Below are positions 32,647 through 41,176 of a stretch of 64,000 nt of DNA, in pieces. This stretch comes from an uncultured bacterium. Its GTDB lineage: Bacteria; Acidobacteriota; HRBIN11; JAKEFK01. The notes under the pieces are model-generated. The model ran no database searches, had not been told where the DNA came from, and was given only the letters and a program-made list of their open reading frames with translations. Position 1 is the first letter of the stretch. Each line of letters begins with the position of its first letter. The DNA lies in the NCBI GenBank assembly GCA_963777505.1, contig CAVZQN010000001.1:224001-288000 (forward strand), read 5' to 3'. A program made the translations under genes and the position numbers.

Positions 32647-33156
32647 GTGAATCTCAAAACCCTGGTAAGCACACTTAAACAAATGCTCCAGCAAGCAATT
32701 TCGGGGCAAAAAGGGAACGTTCTCGTCGAAGGGTCCCAGGCGCCAGAATTTGAGATTAACGACGAAAGCGGCAAAAAGCATACCTTAAATCAATATAGAG
32801 GTAAGAAAGTAATTCTGTGGTTTTATCCTCGTGCGATGACGCCGGGGTGAACTGAAGAAGGAAAACGATTCCGGGATCGAATCGATGAATTTACTAAACG
32901 AAATAGCATTGTTTTGGGAGTCAGCACGGACACCGCGGAAGACAATCGCGCATTTAAAGCGAAAAACGCTTTCCCGTTTCCCCTTCTTTGCGATGTTGAT
33001 GGAATGCTTTCACTAAAATATGGAGCTACAAATTTCAAAAACGCTGCTTTCTCGAACCGGATCAGTTATTTGATTAATGAACATGGAGTTATTGAAAAGG
33101 CTTTTAAGAAAGTCATCCCCGCAAATCATGCCGAAGAACTACTTCAACTTTTGTAA
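32647..33156 (+). CDS. bcp: BCP/PrxQ peroxiredoxin, selenoprotein (Sec at TGA 32848-32850)
   Basis: FYPRAMTPG-TGA-TEEG continues in frame to VLGVSTD..FPFPLL.D..R.SYLI; the TGA replaces the peroxidatic Cys of TPGCT. Confidence 0.85.
32866..32884 (+). promoter_or_regulatory. Candidate bacterial SECIS hairpin
   Basis: cgatt(c)cg-GGAT-cgaatcg; G-initiated loop about 24 nt after the UGA. Confidence 0.6.
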
Positions 33157-34336
33157 GGTCTTTGTTCTCTTAATACCCTTCCTCTTTCCTATCTCGGCCT
33201 TATCAGCAGCACAAGATCCACTCTTACCGCCCCAGTTAGACGAATTGAGAACTCAAGGTTTCACGCATCTTTTCAACATGCGGTATCAAGAAGCCCAATC
33301 CAGTTTTGAATCGATGACTCAAGCAGATCCCAAACATCCAGCGGGGTACATTTATACAGGGAATGCAATCTGGCTTCACCATCTTGCGGATCTTCGAAGA
33401 CTGCAATCGAATGTATACAACAAGAGCGATGCTTTCTTTGATAATGAAAAACAAGAAAAAGCGAACCCAAAAGTCGATACGGAATTCCGCAAGAACATGA
33501 ATAAAGGAGTTGAACTAGCTGAGTTAAGACTCGAGAAAAATCCAAATGATATTGAAGCTATCTATTTCCTCGGAGTTGCAAAGAATATCCTTGCCGGCTA
33601 TGAAGCGACAGTCAATCGAAGTTTTTTTTCAGCCCTTCGCAATGGATCAAAAGGTGTGGATCTTCACAGAGATCTAATCAAACGGGATCCCGCATTCATT
33701 GATCCTTACCTGTCCGTTGGAATGTATGACTACATTGTTGGAAGTTTGCCGGTTGCAGTAAAAATCCTCGTTTTCTTTGGCGGTGTTCATGGGTCAAAAA
33801 AGAATGGACTTGCTGCGGTAGAAAAAGTGTATCGGGATGGAGGATATGCCCGCGATGAAGCCGCAGTCCTTCTGGTGATGCTCTATAACCGTGAAAAACG
33901 GCTTTCGGATGCTTTAAATGTAATGAATTATGTTTCTGAAAAATATCCCGAGAATTCACTCTTTGCGCTTGAACGTGCGATGACTCTTGCGCAGCTCAAA
34001 AAGTTTGTACAAAGCCAGGAAGCCTTTGATTCGATTCTTAAAAATACGAGAGCAATGAGTTACATGCCTGATGTTATTTACTATCAATATGGTGAAGCAT
34101 TGTTTTCTGCAGGAGATTGGGATACTGCCGCCTCAAGGTATGCGGAAGCAGCGAATTCTCCAAAAGCACCCGCCGCTTTAAAAACGATGGCATTACTGAA
34201 TGAAGGCCGATGCTATGATGCGATGGGAAAACGCGAACTTGCGTTGAAACGCTATAGCGAAGTCTTAAAAAGACCCGATGTATTTGAATCACACAAAGCC
34301 GCCAAAGAGTTAACAAAAACTCCATTCAAACCTTAA
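33128..34336 (+). CDS. Exported TPR-repeat protein
   Basis: Signal-like N-terminus; DP..P.GY, A.Y.LG and DPYL..G.Y.Y TPR-like helices. Confidence 0.7.
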   Translation: MPKNYFNFCKVFVLLIPFLFPISALSAAQDPLLPPQLDELRTQGFTHLFNMRYQEAQSSFESMTQADPKHPAGYIYTGNAIWLHHLADLRRLQSNVYNKSDAFFDNEKQEKANPKVDTEFRKNMNKGVELAELRLEKNPNDIEAIYFLGVAKNILAGYEATVNRSFFSALRNGSKGVDLHRDLIKRDPAFIDPYLSVGMYDYIVGSLPVAVKILVFFGGVHGSKKNGLAAVEKVYRDGGYARDEAAVLLVMLYNREKRLSDALNVMNYVSEKYPENSLFALERAMTLAQLKKFVQSQEAFDSILKNTRAMSYMPDVIYYQYGEALFSAGDWDTAASRYAEAANSPKAPAALKTMALLNEGRCYDAMGKRELALKRYSEVLKRPDVFESHKAAKELTKTPFKP

Positions 34337-34445
34337 CCATTCCTGCCCGCGATTCAATATCAATTTGCAGGGTGATTTTCCTAACTTTAGTCAGGGTTGC
34401 CATGCTGAGCCCGAGTCGATAATGAGTGCAGGAGGAATCATCACC

Positions 34446-34826
34446 ATGAAGGTAACCCGGAACGTCAATTTAGATTCTGTGAGTCAGATTGAATCAAAAA
34501 GTGTTCAGAATGATGCGAAGACGTCTCAAGCTTCAGTTAATAAGGAAATTGCGGCTCCTGCCCAGCAGCTCTCTGTTCCTGAAAGAAATGCAAAGCTTGC
34601 CCATCTCGATCTTGAAGGAACTACAAAACAATTTTCGTTAAAAACTAAACTCGATTCAGATCAAAAATCAATCGAAACTGTTTTTAAGGATGTGAAACTT
34701 TATGCGGAACCGAATGCAAAACACGAAGGCGTAGGCCCCTGTGGTGCAGTGGGACCGTGCAATGTAACGGGGCCGTGCAATGTAACAGGACCGTGTGATA
34801 ACGAAGCAGTTGGGCCCTGTGACTAA
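34446..34826 (+). CDS. Putative precursor peptide, 126 aa, with five C-terminal (V/T)GPC repeats
   Basis: GGAGG RBS before ATG 34446; C-terminus GVGPCGAVGPCNVTGPCNVTGPCDNEAVGPCD; 20 nt upstream of the JmjC gene. Confidence 0.7.
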   Translation: MKVTRNVNLDSVSQIESKSVQNDAKTSQASVNKEIAAPAQQLSVPERNAKLAHLDLEGTTKQFSLKTKLDSDQKSIETVFKDVKLYAEPNAKHEGVGPCGAVGPCNVTGPCNVTGPCDNEAVGPCD

Positions 34827-34846: not shown

Positions 34847-36158
34847 ATGATGCTACTAGAGGAAGAAAATATTTCGGCTCAAACTCAGCTTGCTGCAAAG
34901 TTCAGTCTTTCGCGTGACTTTTGGTATGGCTTTTTTTTGCAATCGTGGGGAAAGTATCCGCGAATTCTAAGAAAGCCATTGTCCAACTTGCTTGCCGCTC
35001 CTGAAGAAGTTTTAAAAGCGTTGATTCAAGCTTCGGATCAGTATCGTAAAGGTGAACTCAATACTCCGATCGGATTCTTTGTTGAATATGCAAAGCAATT
35101 GGTAGACGTTCCAACATACCTTCCGGAATCCTGCGATGTTTCATCTGGAAGCGTATGCAAGGCGTGTGGATGAGCTATTGAGACACAGGAAGTTTGGTTT
35201 GATAGCCGAACATTTTCAAATTCACGATTCAAGCATCTGGTTCCGCATCCGTGAATTTCTTCAAGGCCTTTACGAATTTACAGGCCTTCCAGGTGAAGAT
35301 ACGAAGGCAACGATTTTCATCGGGAATTATGATCGAACGCCTCTCGGACTTCACAAAGGCAATTCGCATAATTTTATGTTTGTGCTTTACGGCCGCAAAA
35401 GAATCCGGCTCTGGCCAAAGAAATATTTTAAGAAATCAGACCGCATTGAGCATTCGATTGCTTACGATAAATTCAATGAGGATTCAGTTTTGCTTGAAGG
35501 AAATCCTGGCGACATTCTTTACTGGCCATCCGGATACTGGCACATTGGAGAATCGGCTGAAGATCGTGAACTTTCGATGGGTCTTAGTCTCGCGCTTTTC
35601 ATGGATTCACGCCGCTCAGTCGTTGGTTGGAATACATTAGCAAGACTCCTTCACGCCCGGATTCAAGCTAAGGAAAGCGGATCGAATAAACTGTTTGGTC
35701 TGAAGAGTCATAAGCAGAATCTTGAATCGCTTCCGGATCTCGCGAAACAAACAAAGCTGGCGATTCGCGAGTTATCTGATGATCCATCATTGGAAAAAGC
35801 TGTTGAAGTAACAGTTTTGAATTACCTGACATCGATGGGATTTACACGCGTACCGGTTCTGAACTTCGAAGAAAATCTGGAAGAACATGACACGATCAGC
35901 GGCGTTCCGGGTTCGCCGATTTTGTGGATTCCGTGGAATGATGATCAGCTCTTATGTTCTGCAAATGGTCATGCCTTTACAATGCCTGACGCGGAAGATT
36001 ACTTACAGATTCTTGAGAAACTAAATCGAGGTTCTTGCAGGACCGTAAAAAAATACATTTCCAATTGCGAAATGCCCGCCATCGCACATCAACTTCTTCA
36101 AAAGTTGTACAGCCACGGTGCAATTAGTGTGTCTTCGAAACAGAGTCTCTGCGGTTAA
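34847..36158 (+). CDS. JmjC/cupin-4 (YcfD/ROXA-like) Fe(II)/2OG oxygenase with an HxG motif, frameshifted near 35143
   Basis: N-terminal FF.QSWGK.P.ILR (frame of 34847); FIGNY..TP.GLHKG, F.FVLYGRKR..LW, G.PGDILYWP..YWH (frame of 35136); one extra base joins the frames. Confidence 0.8.
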
Positions 36159-36200: not shown

Positions 36201-37937
36201 ATGCGACCGGTTTGTCTAACAATCTTCATCTTCTTTTCTGTACAACTGGGATTTAGCGCACCAGCTGCCGATCTGATTCTGATCAACGGCAAAATCATCA
36301 CAGTGGATGCAAAAGATTCCATTGCGCAAGCAATTGCGATTCGTGAAGGGAAGATTCTGGCTGTTGGAACCAACGAAGAGATTCGAAAACAAGCCGGGAA
36401 CGATACTCGTATCATCGATCTTCATGGACGCACTGCGACACCGGGTCTCATTGACACACACTGCCACTTTGATGCGACAGCTGATTTGTATGCGATTGAT
36501 CTGAGCAACGTGAAGAGTATCGGCGAATCAGTTGAGCTTGTGCGGAAAAAAGTTTCGGAAGTTCAACCAGGTACCTGGATTCGCGGCCACGGATGGGACG
36601 AAAGTAAATTGAAGGAGTTGCGTTACATCACGGCTGCGGATCTGGATAAAGTCTCACCGAATAATCCTGTTTGGCTCTGGCATACCACGTGGCACTACGG
36701 AGTCGCAAATTCGAGGGCTTTGAAGCTTGCAAAAATTACTGCAGAAACGAAAGATCCGGAAGCAGGCACCATCGATCGAGATTCAAATGGCCATCCCACT
36801 GGCGTTCTAAAGGAAGATCCCGCTATGGATCTTGTTGCTCGACTGATCCCACCTTATACACGCGAACAGCAGCGGGCTGGCATTTTGAAAATAATGTCGG
36901 ACTTCAATCGTGAAGGCATGACAGCGGCAAAAGATCCCGGCATTCCGCCGGAACATTGGAAACTGCTTCACGAACTTCTTCAGGAAAAACTGTTTACGGT
37001 CAGGATTTTTGCGCTGCTCCTCGCAGGTACAAACATGGAGTCCGCGAAAGCTGCGCTTGCCCAACTCCAACCGCTTCCAAGGCCTCCCAAATCATTTGAT
37101 GAAGGGATGCTGTTTGCAGGCGGCGTGAAAATTTTTATGGATGGCAGCGGCAGCGCGCGCACAGCCTGGGTTTATGAACCATGGCATAAGAAGTCGGTGG
37201 AAATCGATACAGGAAACACCGGATATCCTTCGCTCGATCAAACTGTGTATCAACAAATGGCCAGGCTATTTCACAATGCAGGAATTCATATCGGTACTCA
37301 TGCCGTTGGTGACCGTGCGATCGATTGGGTTGTAAACACCTATTCTCAGTTGCTTCAAGAAAAACCTGTAAAAGGGCTTCGGCACAGCATCATTCATTGC
37401 AACATTCCAACCGATCATGCAATCGAGACGATGGCAAAGCTTCAAAAAAATTACGATGCAGGTTATCCCGAAGCGCAAGCGCCGTTTATGTGGTGGATTG
37501 GTGACACCTACGCAGGAACATTCGGTCCGAAACGCAATCTTCGACTCATGCCGTTTCGGACGTATTTGAAAAAAGGGATCCTGTGGGCCGGCGGATCCGA
37601 TTTTTCGGTCACGCCATTTCCTGCACGCTATGGACTCTGGTCCACTGTCGAACGAAAAACACTCAACGGTATCTACGGCTCACAACCTTTCGGGACCGAT
37701 GAATCAGTGGATGTTCGTGTCGCATTGAAATCATTCACAATCTGGGCCGCACGACAATTGTTTCTGGAAGATAAAATTGGCTCTCTGGAAGTTGGAAAAG
37801 ATGCAGACATCGCTGTATGGGACCGCGACCTCTACACGATCCCATCGGCCGATCTAAAGAATCTGAAATGCGAACTGACACTCCTGAAAGGCCGCGAAGT
37901 TTACCGAGCAAAAGACTCACCACTGACTGGAATCTAA
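36201..37937 (+). CDS. Exported amidohydrolase (YtcJ-like, Amidohydro_3)
   Basis: Signal peptide; PGLIDTHCH, GVKIFMDGS, HAVGDRA, IIHC, GGSD, GSLEVGKDAD. Confidence 0.88.
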   Translation: MRPVCLTIFIFFSVQLGFSAPAADLILINGKIITVDAKDSIAQAIAIREGKILAVGTNEEIRKQAGNDTRIIDLHGRTATPGLIDTHCHFDATADLYAIDLSNVKSIGESVELVRKKVSEVQPGTWIRGHGWDESKLKELRYITAADLDKVSPNNPVWLWHTTWHYGVANSRALKLAKITAETKDPEAGTIDRDSNGHPTGVLKEDPAMDLVARLIPPYTREQQRAGILKIMSDFNREGMTAAKDPGIPPEHWKLLHELLQEKLFTVRIFALLLAGTNMESAKAALAQLQPLPRPPKSFDEGMLFAGGVKIFMDGSGSARTAWVYEPWHKKSVEIDTGNTGYPSLDQTVYQQMARLFHNAGIHIGTHAVGDRAIDWVVNTYSQLLQEKPVKGLRHSIIHCNIPTDHAIETMAKLQKNYDAGYPEAQAPFMWWIGDTYAGTFGPKRNLRLMPFRTYLKKGILWAGGSDFSVTPFPARYGLWSTVERKTLNGIYGSQPFGTDESVDVRVALKSFTIWAARQLFLEDKIGSLEVGKDADIAVWDRDLYTIPSADLKNLKCELTLLKGREVYRAKDSPLTGI

Positions 37938-38578
37938 AAGATATTAGGAATGAACTTCTTCAAGTAGATTAACCGTAAATCAACGGAAAGAATGATCCTT
38001 TCCGTAGTCCCTTGATGTCGAACTGAATGAGGATATTGACCTCCATCTTTAAAGGCTAGCAACTCTCCTTCAACCCAAGTCTGAGTTTCATCTCCAACAG
38101 TAATTTCGCATGCCGGGTCGCACTTTAATCCGAGTTGTACTCGCAAGTAGGTGAAGCACCAACCGTGATGTGGCTTAATGTAACTTCCTGGTTTCAACCT
38201 GCTGACAAATGCATTGGCAAGATTTCCTTGTTGCTCCAACTCACCAATCATCTTTGTTGTGAACGGGCATTGAGATCGAGTCCATTCAGTGTAGGAGACA
38301 ATGTCGAATCCGAGCCGATCTTTTGATATGTCCATGAAATCTTCATTAAACACTGACAACGGAAAGGCCTTCCAATAATTTTCATAGAGACAGGTTTCTT
38401 GTTTTTGATCAACGGGATTTACATATGAAAATTGCGGATAATCTCGCAAAGGATCTTGAGTTTTTATGAAGTTCAAAATCTCATCTTTGATTTCAGCGTA
38501 ATGCGATACTAAGCTGTTACAGATAGGAATTCGTTCCAGATAGTCATTCCAAAATCTACACTCCTCTGCCCTGCTCAT
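37934..38578 (-). CDS. Aspartyl/asparaginyl beta-hydroxylase (AspH/LpxO) family 2OG oxygenase
   Basis: CP.T, FVSRLKPGS.IKPHHG, LRVQLGL, W.EG..L.F.D...HSV.H.G...RIIL.VD. Confidence 0.82.
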   Translation of the reverse strand: MSRAEECRFWNDYLERIPICNSLVSHYAEIKDEILNFIKTQDPLRDYPQFSYVNPVDQKQETCLYENYWKAFPLSVFNEDFMDISKDRLGFDIVSYTEWTRSQCPFTTKMIGELEQQGNLANAFVSRLKPGSYIKPHHGWCFTYLRVQLGLKCDPACEITVGDETQTWVEGELLAFKDGGQYPHSVRHQGTTERIILSVDLRLIYLKKFIPNIF

Positions 38579-38834
38579 TTTTGATCTTGCGGAGCCGTTC
38601 CAATAGCTTCTGTCACTTTTTAATCACGTCCCGAACGGACGATGCGTGCCGGGCAACTCTATCTGGAATTACAATCTGGAATTCTTCTTCCAGTTCAAAG
38701 AGAATTTGAAGTCGATCGACTGAATCAATGTCGAGTGAATCAAAAGTAGTGTCGATATTGATGGGGATTTTTTTTCGGCTACATCCTTTAGAGATTGCAG
38801 AAATGGCGCGTTCTTCTATCGTCCTATCGTTCAT
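38575..38834 (-). CDS. Acyl carrier protein (probable -1 indel in an A-run near 38617 truncates the C-terminal helix)
   Basis: FDSLDIDSVDRLQILFELEEEF phosphopantetheine motif; adding one A gives ...KKVTEAIGTAPQDQK* ending in an ATGA overlap with the hydroxylase. Confidence 0.82.
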
Positions 38835-38858
38835 ACATTCTATTAGGACGTCGCGATC

Positions 38859-39404
38859 TTACTGACCAAAAATGTTCGGGTTAATTGCCACTTCTGGGCG
38901 TGCGCATTCTGCACGTATAGAAATGCCATGATCCTCAATCATAGGATCTAGAAACTTCATATCCTTAGGACCTGAAAGGGATGGATCTAAATCTTTGGAT
39001 TGATAGTGAAGCGGTTTATCCAATTTAGCAGCCAAAGCGCCAGCATCCTGAAACTTGCGAACCTCACTTTCCGGCAGACGATTGAGAGTAGCATTCTGAT
39101 CCGGCGTCAGCGCAAAGTTCGTTTTGACAAAGCCTTTGAAGTCTTTGAATGCTTCCGGATATTGCTTTGGAGTCAGACCAGATTGAAGCACATGATTCAT
39201 TGAAGCATCGCTCATGATTACTTTGCCTTCTGATTTTCCAGCTAAATAAGCCGTGCGAAATGAATCCACTTTTGAAGATTCAAATGAGTCATTTGTATTA
39301 GCGATACCTGGTTGCGATTTAGCGGGACTTGCTGGTTGTTCAGTGTTGCTTTGAATCTCTGAGTTTACAGGGGCATTCCGGTTAGTTCTTGAAAGAGGAT
39401 CCAT
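38859..39404 (-). CDS. Hypothetical protein with a low-complexity S/T/N/Q/P N-terminus
   Basis: GGAGG RBS; 181 aa; lies between FAAL and ACP; no family recognised. Confidence 0.7.
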   Translation of the reverse strand: MDPLSRTNRNAPVNSEIQSNTEQPASPAKSQPGIANTNDSFESSKVDSFRTAYLAGKSEGKVIMSDASMNHVLQSGLTPKQYPEAFKDFKGFVKTNFALTPDQNATLNRLPESEVRKFQDAGALAAKLDKPLHYQSKDLDPSLSGPKDMKFLDPMIEDHGISIRAECARPEVAINPNIFGQ

Positions 39405-39478
39405 TTAACCTCCACATTCCCATCTGGAATTATTAATGCTGAGTATACTTCGTTTCGAAGGCTCTGCAAAAGTTCACG

Positions 39479-41176
39479 TCAAGCCTTTGACAGTTCATTT
39501 TCAAGATAGCGACGACGCATTTCGTTGCGGCGTATTTTACCGCTCGATGTGCGCGCAAGAGAATTTGGCAAAATAAAAAGAACTTCCGAAATTTGAATGC
39601 CCTCTTCGCGATTGATCGCTTCTGAAATCGCTGTTGCGATCGCCTTTTGAGTCTTTTCTGGAATTGACTGTTTGAGTTCCTGTAAAAGTATGAGGCTTTC
39701 ATTTCCAGAATCAGAATCAATCGCAAATGCAGCAGATGGCCGCTGCTGCAACAAAGGGTGAGCAGATTGTGCGATAAATTCTAGATCCTGAGGCGCATAA
39801 TTCTTTCCGCGAATGATAATCAGATCCTTGATTCTTCCCGTAATGAATAGCTCCCCTTCATCATCGAGAAAACCAAGATCGCCAGTTCGCAAATAATGCT
39901 CCGCGAGATGATGAACAAAGTTTTCTTGCGTCGCTTCTGGATGATTCCAATAACCGAGTGCTACACTTGGACCTGACACCCAGATTTCTCCAATATTCCC
40001 GGAAGTACAATCTTTTTGAGTTTCGTTGTCAACAATTCGGAGTTTCACACCTGAGCAGGCTTGTCCGCATCCAACAAAAACCTTACTGGCAACAGAAGAC
40101 TCAGTTTCGATTACCTTATGATCAGCAAGCGCTGCCAAATCAACGCGCTTTTGTTTCATCGGCCGGGACATATCGCGTCCACTAACAATCAATGTGGCTT
40201 CTGCAAGTCCATAACATGGAAGAAAAATATCTTTACGCAGATTAGCGGATCTAAAACGCTCATGGAAGTCCACTAGTGTTGAGGAGTGAATCGGCTCAGC
40301 ACCGTTAAATGCGACGCGAAGCGAAGAGAGATCAAGCTTCTCAATGTCCTCTATCTTTATTTTTTGGACACAAAGATCGTAGGCAAAATTAGGTGCAACT
40401 GTAACCGTACCCCGGTATTTTGAAATAGCCGCTAGCCAATGCAAAGGGCGAATCACGCTTGAAGGGGGCATCAACACAGTTTGCATGCCTGAATACACAG
40501 AGTGAAGAATTGCGCCAATCAGTCCCATATCATGGTACATGGGTAGCCAGCTAACCATGATGTCGGTTTCATTCGCACTCATCGCATCGCTGATCATGCG
40601 AAAATTATTCAGCAAGTTCGCGTGACTCAATGCGACACCTTTCGGGCTACCGGTTGACCCTGATGTGTACTGCAGCAATGCCATCGAGTCTTTTGCTGTA
40701 TGCGGATCCTCCCATTCAGTCGCCATCGAATTTTCAACAGAGTCCACTTCGATCCATTGAATACTTGAGGTTTCAGGGAAATTTTCATCAATTTCTTTTA
40801 CGAAATTGAACATCGCTGTTGTGACTAATACATTGGTGGCCCGTGAGTTCTGAATAATGGAAAACAATCTTTCGAGTTGCTTTCTGGAAAAAGGAGGATA
40901 GAGCGGAACAGGTATTGCTCCGGCGTAAATACATCCGAAAAAACTGGTTATAAGATCGAGTCCACAATCGAAGATCAAAAGAGCTGGTTTGGCGTTCCCT
41001 CCAAGTTGCTGAATGCGACTTGCAATAGCTCGTGCACGATTATCAAGTTCGTTGTATGTGATCGTCTCAACGCCTGAGCCTGTAAGTCCCGCAAGATATG
41101 TAAAAACAACGCGATCAGGATGAGCCTCGGCGCGGGAGCTTAGCATTTCTATTAGAGTGTCAAACTTTGTTTTCAT
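39479..41176 (-). CDS. Stand-alone fatty acyl-AMP ligase (FAAL)
   Basis: LQYTSGSTGSPKGV, SWLPMYHDMGLIG, APNFAY, NGAEPI, PCYGLAEATL, LRTGDLGF, TGR.KDLII.RG.N..PQD.E, RTSSGKIRR. Confidence 0.9.
   Translation of the reverse strand: MKTKFDTLIEMLSSRAEAHPDRVVFTYLAGLTGSGVETITYNELDNRARAIASRIQQLGGNAKPALLIFDCGLDLITSFFGCIYAGAIPVPLYPPFSRKQLERLFSIIQNSRATNVLVTTAMFNFVKEIDENFPETSSIQWIEVDSVENSMATEWEDPHTAKDSMALLQYTSGSTGSPKGVALSHANLLNNFRMISDAMSANETDIMVSWLPMYHDMGLIGAILHSVYSGMQTVLMPPSSVIRPLHWLAAISKYRGTVTVAPNFAYDLCVQKIKIEDIEKLDLSSLRVAFNGAEPIHSSTLVDFHERFRSANLRKDIFLPCYGLAEATLIVSGRDMSRPMKQKRVDLAALADHKVIETESSVASKVFVGCGQACSGVKLRIVDNETQKDCTSGNIGEIWVSGPSVALGYWNHPEATQENFVHHLAEHYLRTGDLGFLDDEGELFITGRIKDLIIIRGKNYAPQDLEFIAQSAHPLLQQRPSAAFAIDSDSGNESLILLQELKQSIPEKTQKAIATAISEAINREEGIQISEVLFILPNSLARTSSGKIRRNEMRRRYLENELSKA

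Follow-up and report, generated by a model that had tools for sequence, protein, structure and literature searches.

What does a JmjC-type oxygenase do, and to which substrate, when the carboxylate that should help to hold its iron has been replaced by glycine? The question is raised by a gene in a 64,000-nucleotide stretch of DNA from an uncultured acidobacterium (contig CAVZQN010000001.1 of assembly GCA_963777505.1; this whole stretch is called the window), in which a small peptide gene is directly followed by a gene for an Fe(II)/2-oxoglutarate (2OG) oxygenase that reads H-K-G where its JmjC relatives read HxD or HxE. A first-pass annotation of the window had pointed to this motif, had described the G-R-K-R strand and the distal histidine as intact, and had proposed a JmjC-fold radical halogenase acting on a ribosomal peptide. 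Motif, strand and histidine were all found as described, with the codons cac-aaa-ggc read directly in the window (Table 1).

The motif corresponds to H73-K74-G75 of ORF-B, the larger of the two open reading frames (ORFs) into which the gene is split, and to H168, K169 and G170 of P0001, an intact relative with 98% identity whose numbering is used throughout. Its glycine occupies the position of the Asp or Glu metal ligand of JmjC relatives, such that the HxD/E...H facial triad of JmjC and ribosomal oxygenase (ROX) enzymes is replaced by H-K-G...H, which is the HxG/A...H motif lacking a carboxylate ligand that is found in Fe(II)/2OG halogenases. A single-sequence phmmer comparison with the PDB set H-K-G over H-Y-D of NO66 in a weak match (E 0.6). 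When a profile of the clade described below was aligned to YcfD (E 3.5e-05), GRKR fell on GRRRW and the distal His on that of PPGFPHEG. Ungapped back-extension of the profile alignment, with metal-ligand residue numbers that we take to be those of YcfD, sets the glycine over the Asp ligand of that enzyme. For binding of the C5 carboxylate of 2OG, a basic residue is present as K183 of GRKR, which lies over the 2OG-binding Arg of GRRRW.

The JmjC fold assigned in the first-pass annotation was borne out by profile and structure comparisons. ORF-B matched PF08007 (JmjC_2; E 2.3e-07, 30.8 bits against a cut-off of 22) and PF13621 (Cupin_8; E 1.5e-06, 28.8 bits against a cut-off of 27.4) in Pfam. 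An AlphaFold2 model of P0001 (predicted local distance difference test score, pLDDT, 80.2; predicted template-modelling score 0.66) has a predicted beta-barrel core, a helical middle domain (helices 255-328) and a C-terminal beta/alpha domain with the elements of a winged helix (strands 348-379, helices 382-421). Its best Foldseek matches in the PDB, aligned over the full length, were NO66, YcfD, a YcfD-like enzyme of Rhodothermus and MINA53 (E 3e-16 to 1e-12), followed by YxbC, FIH and JMJD7. Both the Pfam families and the leading structural matches place the core in the JmjC double-stranded beta-helix, and by its predicted structure the protein is a three-domain Fe(II)/2OG oxygenase of the ribosomal-oxygenase type. 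The ROX enzymes (E. coli YcfD/RoxA, human NO66 and MINA53) share the barrel, the helical domain, the C-terminal winged helix and PF08007 with it, and some homologues of the window enzyme are labelled 'L16 Arg81 hydroxylase'. However, sequence identity to ROX enzymes is only 12-18%, the Asp ligand present in ROX is Gly here, the neighbor in the window is a small repeat peptide gene with no ribosomal-protein context, and the winged helix of the window enzyme is modelled as gripping a leader peptide.

Because GAC and GGC are one base apart, the first-pass annotation had cautioned that the glycine might be a sequence error. This concern was dispelled by comparison of homologs, in which the glycine emerges, on the evidence of the alignments, as a clade character far beyond chance or a one-base error. 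Among 37 homologs from the first search, the carboxylate position gave 20 HxG, 13 HxD, 2 HxE and 1 HxA, with one sequence not covering the site. Scans of metagenome contigs, with the motif readable in 52 of 73 loci, returned 25 HxG, 26 HxD and one false motif match, and scans of genome contigs, with the motif readable in most of 67 loci, returned 5 HxG. In an exhaustive HMMER search, 1214 clusters reached E <= 0.001, and the representatives of the best 150 comprised 117 HxD, 27 HxG, 4 HxE, 1 HxA and one in which the site was uncovered; H168, K183 and H231 were kept in nearly all of these 150, position 183 being Lys or Arg. At the locus itself, a metagenome contig that begins 4 nt before the HKG codons has no difference listed there, which is weak evidence for the codons as assembled.

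A tree of 118 rows (quick method, LG+G4, supported by the Shimodaira-Hasegawa-like approximate likelihood ratio test only) was built after rows outside the range of 380-520 aa and two duplicates had been left out. The window protein falls in a clade of 35 rows (support 97), 34 of which are HxG, usually HxGxS, and one HxE; P0007, also in this clade, reads H-E-G, and the sister groups are HxD. The clade comprises at least 22 clusters at 50% identity. Two further residues co-vary with the glycine when the 34 clade rows are set against 78 HxD/E rows: Ser at +2 (S172), in 34 of 34 rows versus 0-10% elsewhere, and Lys152, in 97% versus 4-10%. The serine also occurs in 18 of the 22 main-type HxG representatives among the best 150 clusters. 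The first-pass annotation would have counted Asp in close homologs against its proposal; for the most part HxG is kept among homologs, down to about 31% identity, but P0002 and P0039, at about 71% identity to the window protein, have Glu, both reading H-K-E-S-S. This HxE lineage is real, because the two proteins come from two contigs and differ by four residues. P0002 and P0003 are the next-closest homologs, at 70-72% identity.

Another HxG clade, unrelated to the first (motif HRGQM; 4 rows, support 99), indicates that the D-to-G change arose at least twice in the family. Its members, which read G-V/I-H-R-G-Q-M-S (L013, L020, L035, L042 and L059), come from a metagenome-assembled genome (MAG) of Blastocatellia, alphaproteobacteria and a Lysobacterales MAG. 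In four of them (L013, L020, L035 and L042) the HxG gene lies between two large putative B12-binding radical-SAM enzymes, as judged from their N-termini, and in L013 and L020 an additional ORF is taken for a putative carbamoyltransferase. No leader-type peptide was seen beside the genes of this second clade.

What the enzyme acts upon is suggested by the gene directly upstream of it. The encoded peptide is laid out as a leader followed by a core with Gly-Pro-Cys (GPC) repeats; in the mechanical ORF list its frame begins earlier, at TTG 34365. The precursor matched no Pfam or NCBIfam family at cut-off, and NCBIfam likewise contained no family for the enzyme. Its sole homolog found, P0038, is 89% identical over the leader, and judged from the sequences recovered, the long five-repeat precursor is known from this lineage only. 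The leader in the window has no Gly-Gly (GG) site. At the HxG-clade loci from metagenomes, the enzyme gene is preceded by one to seven small ORFs with a Lys-rich leader (..K-V-K-D-L..K-G-G) and short cores such as AVGPCNRKNL, IEPCYRK and GVIPCI. The main HxG clade is represented by 25 loci, 24 with at least 200 bp upstream, and 19 of these have leader-type ORFs with GG leaders; of their 49 peptides, 42 contain Pro-Cys (spread over 17 of the 19 loci) and 43 contain Cys. One further HxG locus, L074, has such a peptide outside the length filter, which is not among the 49. The HxD sister clade (HKDPV) presents a different picture: all 12 loci have at least 200 bp upstream and 11 have leader-type ORFs, but none of their 15 peptides contains Pro-Cys, while 14 contain Cys. 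The association with Pro-Cys rests on a single clade origin and hence counts as one evolutionary event.

No tailoring gene other than that of the enzyme is conserved in the cassette at the clade loci. The flanking genes of the window, which encode a TPR protein (33077-34336, +) and an Amidohydro_3 protein (36201-37937, +; E 2e-90), each with a hydrophobic, signal-sequence-like N-terminus, are not counted in the system because neither is conserved beside the homologs. It is thus very probable that the enzyme tailors the ribosomal peptide encoded directly upstream, as expected of a pathway for a RiPP, a peptide made on the ribosome and modified after translation, and on this point the first-pass annotation has been strengthened by the adjoining precursor, the clade-wide pairing with Pro-Cys and the complex model discussed below. 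As a two-gene cassette, the pair seems to represent a RiPP family of soil bacteria that has not been described before. The enzymes themselves form a natural two-His JmjC clade paired with Pro-Cys peptides, of which no description was found and which is best filed as a variant of the JmjC-type RiPP oxygenases.

Several HxD members of the wider family also have peptide-associated neighborhoods. L001, L003 and L014 adjoin a large gene taken for a putative YcaO, and L001 and L014 also have a leader peptide of the nitrile-hydratase-like (NHLP) type nearby. L002 lies near a peptide with four QPSPG(G/D) repeats. In the HKDPV sister clade (L005, L006, L080 and L100), GG-leader peptides are found nearby, with cores such as KAKAIISLVCETGQR.

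Modelling of P0001 with the window precursor and Fe(II), in three runs with three controls, suggests how the peptide may be recognized. The complex scores were 0.66, 0.65 and 0.65, against 0.00 for the best control; among solved complexes, 116 of 157 reached the mark applied to this score, and among mismatched pairs, 2 of 215. The pLDDT of the partner was 35-37, and the runs share at least 27% of contacts. The confident contacts predicted are between enzyme residues 368-379 and 411-418 and precursor residues 76, 79-83 and 85-86, that is, between the conserved strand C-S-A-N-G-H-A-F-T-M-P with helix 411-418 and I76, V79-V83, L85 and Y86. The segment VFKDVKLY lies 17 residues before the first Pro-Cys, compared with about 19 in the short precursors, and resembles their K-V-K-D-L. 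According to the model, which is the support for this point, VFKDVKLY would pair with the C-terminal winged helix in the classical mode of a RiPP recognition element (RRE). Fusions of JmjC and RRE domains in RiPP contexts are on record in the accessible part of one publication (PMC12710340).

Whether the cassette is functional in the source organism depends on how its frameshift is read. ORF-A and ORF-B overlap in different frames and are pieces of one gene, in which the first-pass annotation correctly placed an indel. The extra T at the junction is missing from two intact relatives, P0001 with 435 aa and P0041 with 436 aa, which come from two other assemblies, are 98-99% identical and read ..DVS-LEAY.. 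across it, and a 252-nt soil-metagenome contig lacks exactly this one base. The source genome (5.23 Mb in 14 contigs) contains a single, split copy of the gene only. With the T in place, the first 98 residues are out of frame, and the full enzyme therefore cannot be made from the gene as assembled, which is either a recent pseudogene or an assembly error. Only three soil-metagenome runs contained 4-5% of the sampled words of the locus, but contigs from their reads covered 12, 6 and 5 of 30 bins and do not settle the extra T in the source strain. The existence of intact relatives led to the rejection of programmed frameshifting as an explanation.

A real frameshift in a dead or decaying cassette would mean that this strain does not produce the enzyme and that the two-His site belongs to a binding-only or relaxed protein. 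Apart from the split gene itself, this explanation can call on the contig of P0041, where the enzyme is whole (436 aa) but the precursor P0038 is frameshifted within the 18-nt repeats, its ORF dropping out of the GPC frame once the first repeat is past (..GVGPCGAVWTVQCNG..); the cause is either decay of the cassette in this lineage or indel errors in the assemblies. Furthermore, P0001 had no match in any of 40 other genomes, ranging from the same genus to the same phylum, which marks the cassette as accessory and, for the decay explanation, as dispensable. Yet clade members with 31-72% identity keep all catalytic residues but the Asp, and relaxed selection is thereby ruled out for the family. 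The frame is intact in two assemblies and one short-read contig, and P0001 differs from the window protein by few substitutions with no further breaks. An assembly error is a possible cause of the split. A dead or decaying cassette is regarded as very unlikely.

From its fold, its two His ligands and its 2OG-binding Lys, the protein can be argued to be an active Fe/2OG oxygenase in which one coordination site is open. In the mechanism proposed, the winged helix would act as an RRE by pairing with VFKDVKLY, and this pairing would deliver the (V/T)GPC repeats to the iron site. The iron would be held by two protein ligands, H168 and H231, with the third position open across the clade and presumably occupied, like that of AspH and FIH D201G, by water or a spectator anion. 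The ferryl species would then hydroxylate the Pro-Cys motif, most likely at Pro, where both the target residue and the outcome are what we infer. Hydroxylation is put forward tentatively, as an outcome that falls somewhat short of probable.

Precedents for a hydroxylating two-His site are found in enzymes that oxidize protein residues. The natural HxE lineage within the clade is a point in favor of hydroxylation, since it implies that the scaffold tolerates a full triad. FIH D201G is reported to have yielded a hydroxylated product only and no chlorinated product. As far as the accessible parts of the papers go, AspH binds its iron through two His, with a firmly bound water, and fails to halogenate even when offered pseudohalides (PMC13168262; PMC6817910), and FIH D201G is catalytically viable (PMC6817910, citing Hewitson 2008). 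Both are in keeping with hydroxylation at a two-His site, and the first-pass annotation had itself cautioned that some two-His enzymes hydroxylate. FIH is itself a JmjC enzyme and among the Foldseek matches of P0001, but its D201G form is an engineered variant rather than a natural clade. AspH belongs to PF05118 (Asp_Arg_Hydrox), to which the window protein had no Pfam match, and the second-sphere Asp that holds its water seems, from the alignment, to have no evident counterpart in the window enzyme.

The characterized JmjC enzymes of RiPP pathways, CzlI (curacozole) and BipG (biphenomycin), are described as hydroxylases in the source text available. These enzymes and the RRE-bearing alpha-ketoglutarate hydroxylases such as MppG likewise use Fe and 2OG to modify a ribosomal precursor, in a manner dependent on leader or flanking sequence. 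However, CzlI has a full His145/Asp147/His224 triad, and in the descriptions by which these enzymes were compared, no HxG is reported and the precursors are without Pro-Cys cores.

Several observations weigh against hydroxylation by an active enzyme of this kind. The gene as assembled cannot yield the full protein, and the complex model is confident for the leader only, the core not being confidently placed near the metal. Most of the natural two-His families known among 2OG oxygenases are halogenases. Moreover, a single transition would turn any of the Gly codons into one for Asp or Glu, yet Gly is retained by 34 of the 35 clade members, and Ser at +2 and Lys152 co-vary with it; together these features suggest that the open site is needed, which plain hydroxylation leaves unexplained. 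Finally, HXG/A is given as an accepted signature of Fe/2OG halogenases in the portion of a preprint that was available (bioRxiv 10.64898/2026.01.20.700248). It is conceivable, although again not to be called probable, that the open site serves a rebound other than hydroxylation, in which chloride or a substrate Cys thiolate bound to the iron is transferred to a Pro radical.

If the ligand were chloride, the enzyme would be a radical peptide halogenase, in which a chloroferryl takes hydrogen from Pro, or else from the -3 residue, with Cl as the rebound partner of the radical so formed. That chlorine might be retained, or it might be displaced by the adjoining Cys thiol (cryptic halogenation) to give a thioether ring, for which the invariant Cys beside the invariant Pro would be suited. 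The conservation of HxG across a deep clade along with Ser at +2, the holding of Gly although one transition restores Asp or Glu, the two or more origins of the D-to-G change, the intact 2OG-binding Lys and distal His and the status of HXG/A as an accepted marker in the same preprint all speak for this possibility. The Fe(II)/2OG halogenases, as described in the sources at hand (SyrB2, HxA; WelO5 and BesD, HxG), share the two-His motif with Gly or Ala for the carboxylate and the dependence on 2OG. They differ in belonging to other fold subfamilies with no detectable similarity to the window protein, and in acting on carrier-bound or free small molecules rather than a ribosomal peptide. No halogenase was among the Foldseek matches listed (ranks 1-50), no halogenase Pfam family (SyrB2/PhyH-like, WelO5-like or BesD-like) was matched at E <= 0.01, and none occurred in PDB sequence matches at E <= 1. 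Nor was a JmjC-fold halogenase or an Fe/2OG halogenase of RiPPs found in the literature searched, which included few subscription journals. A two-His site is not sufficient by itself for halogenation, as AspH illustrates in the accessible accounts, a natural HxE revertant exists at 71% identity, and no partner gene for a chlorinated intermediate is conserved beside the genes of the clade. Halogenation, the inference originally drawn from the motif, thus retains the motif as its basis, with no sequence or fold match to halogenases to add to it, and is considered somewhat unlikely.

The missing ligand might instead be supplied by the substrate, with the Cys of Pro-Cys binding iron as a thiolate and the Pro radical rebounding onto sulfur to form a C-S bridge, or, in an alternative form, with the sulfur itself being oxidized. 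Ring closure by isopenicillin N synthase is the model for radical rebound onto sulfur. Such a role would account for the tie between the open site and the Pro-Cys core (42 of 49 peptides versus 0 of 15 in the HxD sister clade), the ligand that was lost is anionic, like a thiolate, and the enzyme is the sole conserved tailoring gene in its cassette. On the other hand, Cys is also present in the cores of the HxD sister clade, such that Cys alone does not require an open site; the second HxG clade (HRGQM) is without such peptides nearby; and the association represents a single evolutionary event. We know of no 2OG oxygenase with a triad completed by a substrate thiolate, and none was seen in the literature searched. 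This possibility is considered unlikely, and hydroxylation at an open two-His site is retained as the working account of the reaction.

Table 1. Features of the precursor and JmjC genes in the window (residue numbers of the enzyme follow P0001 unless stated otherwise)
Feature	Position	Strand	Remark
Ribosome-binding site AGGAGG	34430..34435	+	10 nt ahead of precursor ATG; read from the sequence
Precursor peptide gene	34446..34826	+	126 aa; directly upstream of the JmjC gene
Leader recognition segment I76-Y86 (IETVFKDVKLY), putative	34671..34703	+	resembles the (V/A)KDL leader motif of the short precursors of the clade
Core with five (V/T)-G-P-C repeats, G95 to D126	34728..34823	+	from the sequence
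18-nt tandem repeat encoding part of the core	34751..34795	+	from the sequence
JmjC gene, N-terminal piece (ORF-A)	34847..35173	+	108 aa; colinear with P0001 residues 1-98, then out of frame
JmjC gene, main piece (ORF-B)	35136..36158	+	340 aa; double-stranded beta-helix core, helical domain, C-terminal winged helix
Extra T shifting the frame	35144	+	missing from intact relatives and one metagenome contig
Clade-specific Lys K152	35304..35306	+	Glu or Asp elsewhere in the family
H-K-G metal motif	35352..35360	+	cac 35352-35354, aaa 35355-35357, ggc 35358-35360
Ser at +2 from Gly (S172)	35364..35366	+	co-varies with Gly
G-R-K-R strand	35391..35402	+	G86-R89 of ORF-B; K183 aligns with 2OG-binding Arg of YcfD
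Distal His H231 in Y-W-H-I-G-E	35541..35543	+	H136 of ORF-B; invariant in the family
C-terminal winged-helix (RRE-like) domain, predicted	35868..36125	+	model secondary structure, ROX-family fold
Strand C-S-A-N-G-H-A-F-T-M-P, modelled leader-binding edge	35955..35987	+	interface residues of the complex model

Two other regions of the window attracted attention. A gene for a peroxiredoxin of the Bcp/PrxQ type (32647-33156, +), with PF00578 on its second half, contains one in-frame TGA (32848-32850) at the position of the peroxidatic Cys (..TPG-U-TEEG..). Since the genome also has a tRNA-Sec (69.6 bits; anticodon TCA by ARAGORN) and SelA (E 6.5e-141), the protein is likely to be a selenocysteine enzyme; the 70 nt past the TGA contained no significant hairpin (z +1.0). 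Downstream of the JmjC gene lies a lipid-type cluster on the opposite strand (37934-41176, -) encoding a fatty-acyl-AMP ligase (AMP-binding, E 2e-70), a 181-aa protein without a family, an acyl carrier protein and a hydroxylase. This hydroxylase (37934..38578) is an Asp_Arg_Hydrox protein (PF05118; AspH/LpxO/OlsC-like; E 2.3e-28) and reads P-H-H-G-W, which by its letters may be a second HxG-type site, at a distance of 1.8 kb from the JmjC gene; no connection of these genes was seen.

JmjC oxygenases are, to our knowledge, known only as hydroxylases and demethylases, and we know of attempts to obtain transfer of halogens or other heteroatoms by this fold only with engineered variants such as FIH D201G. 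The present clade offers a natural case in which the carboxylate has been removed and which comes with a short, genetically encoded substrate (a GG leader followed by x-Pro-Cys-x), making the question of rebound in JmjC enzymes directly testable. Should chloride or thiolate rebound prove true, this clade would be the first of JmjC fold to act, under guidance by a leader, as a peptide halogenase or as a 2OG enzyme that forms C-S bonds, and a new class of RiPPs with Pro-Cys cores would be defined by it; a chlorinating or C-S bond-forming outcome would also provide a leader-guided, programmable enzyme for C-H functionalization of peptides. If hydroxylation is the true outcome, the clade would constitute a second natural family of two-His hydroxylases and would inform how the choice between OH and Cl rebound is made.

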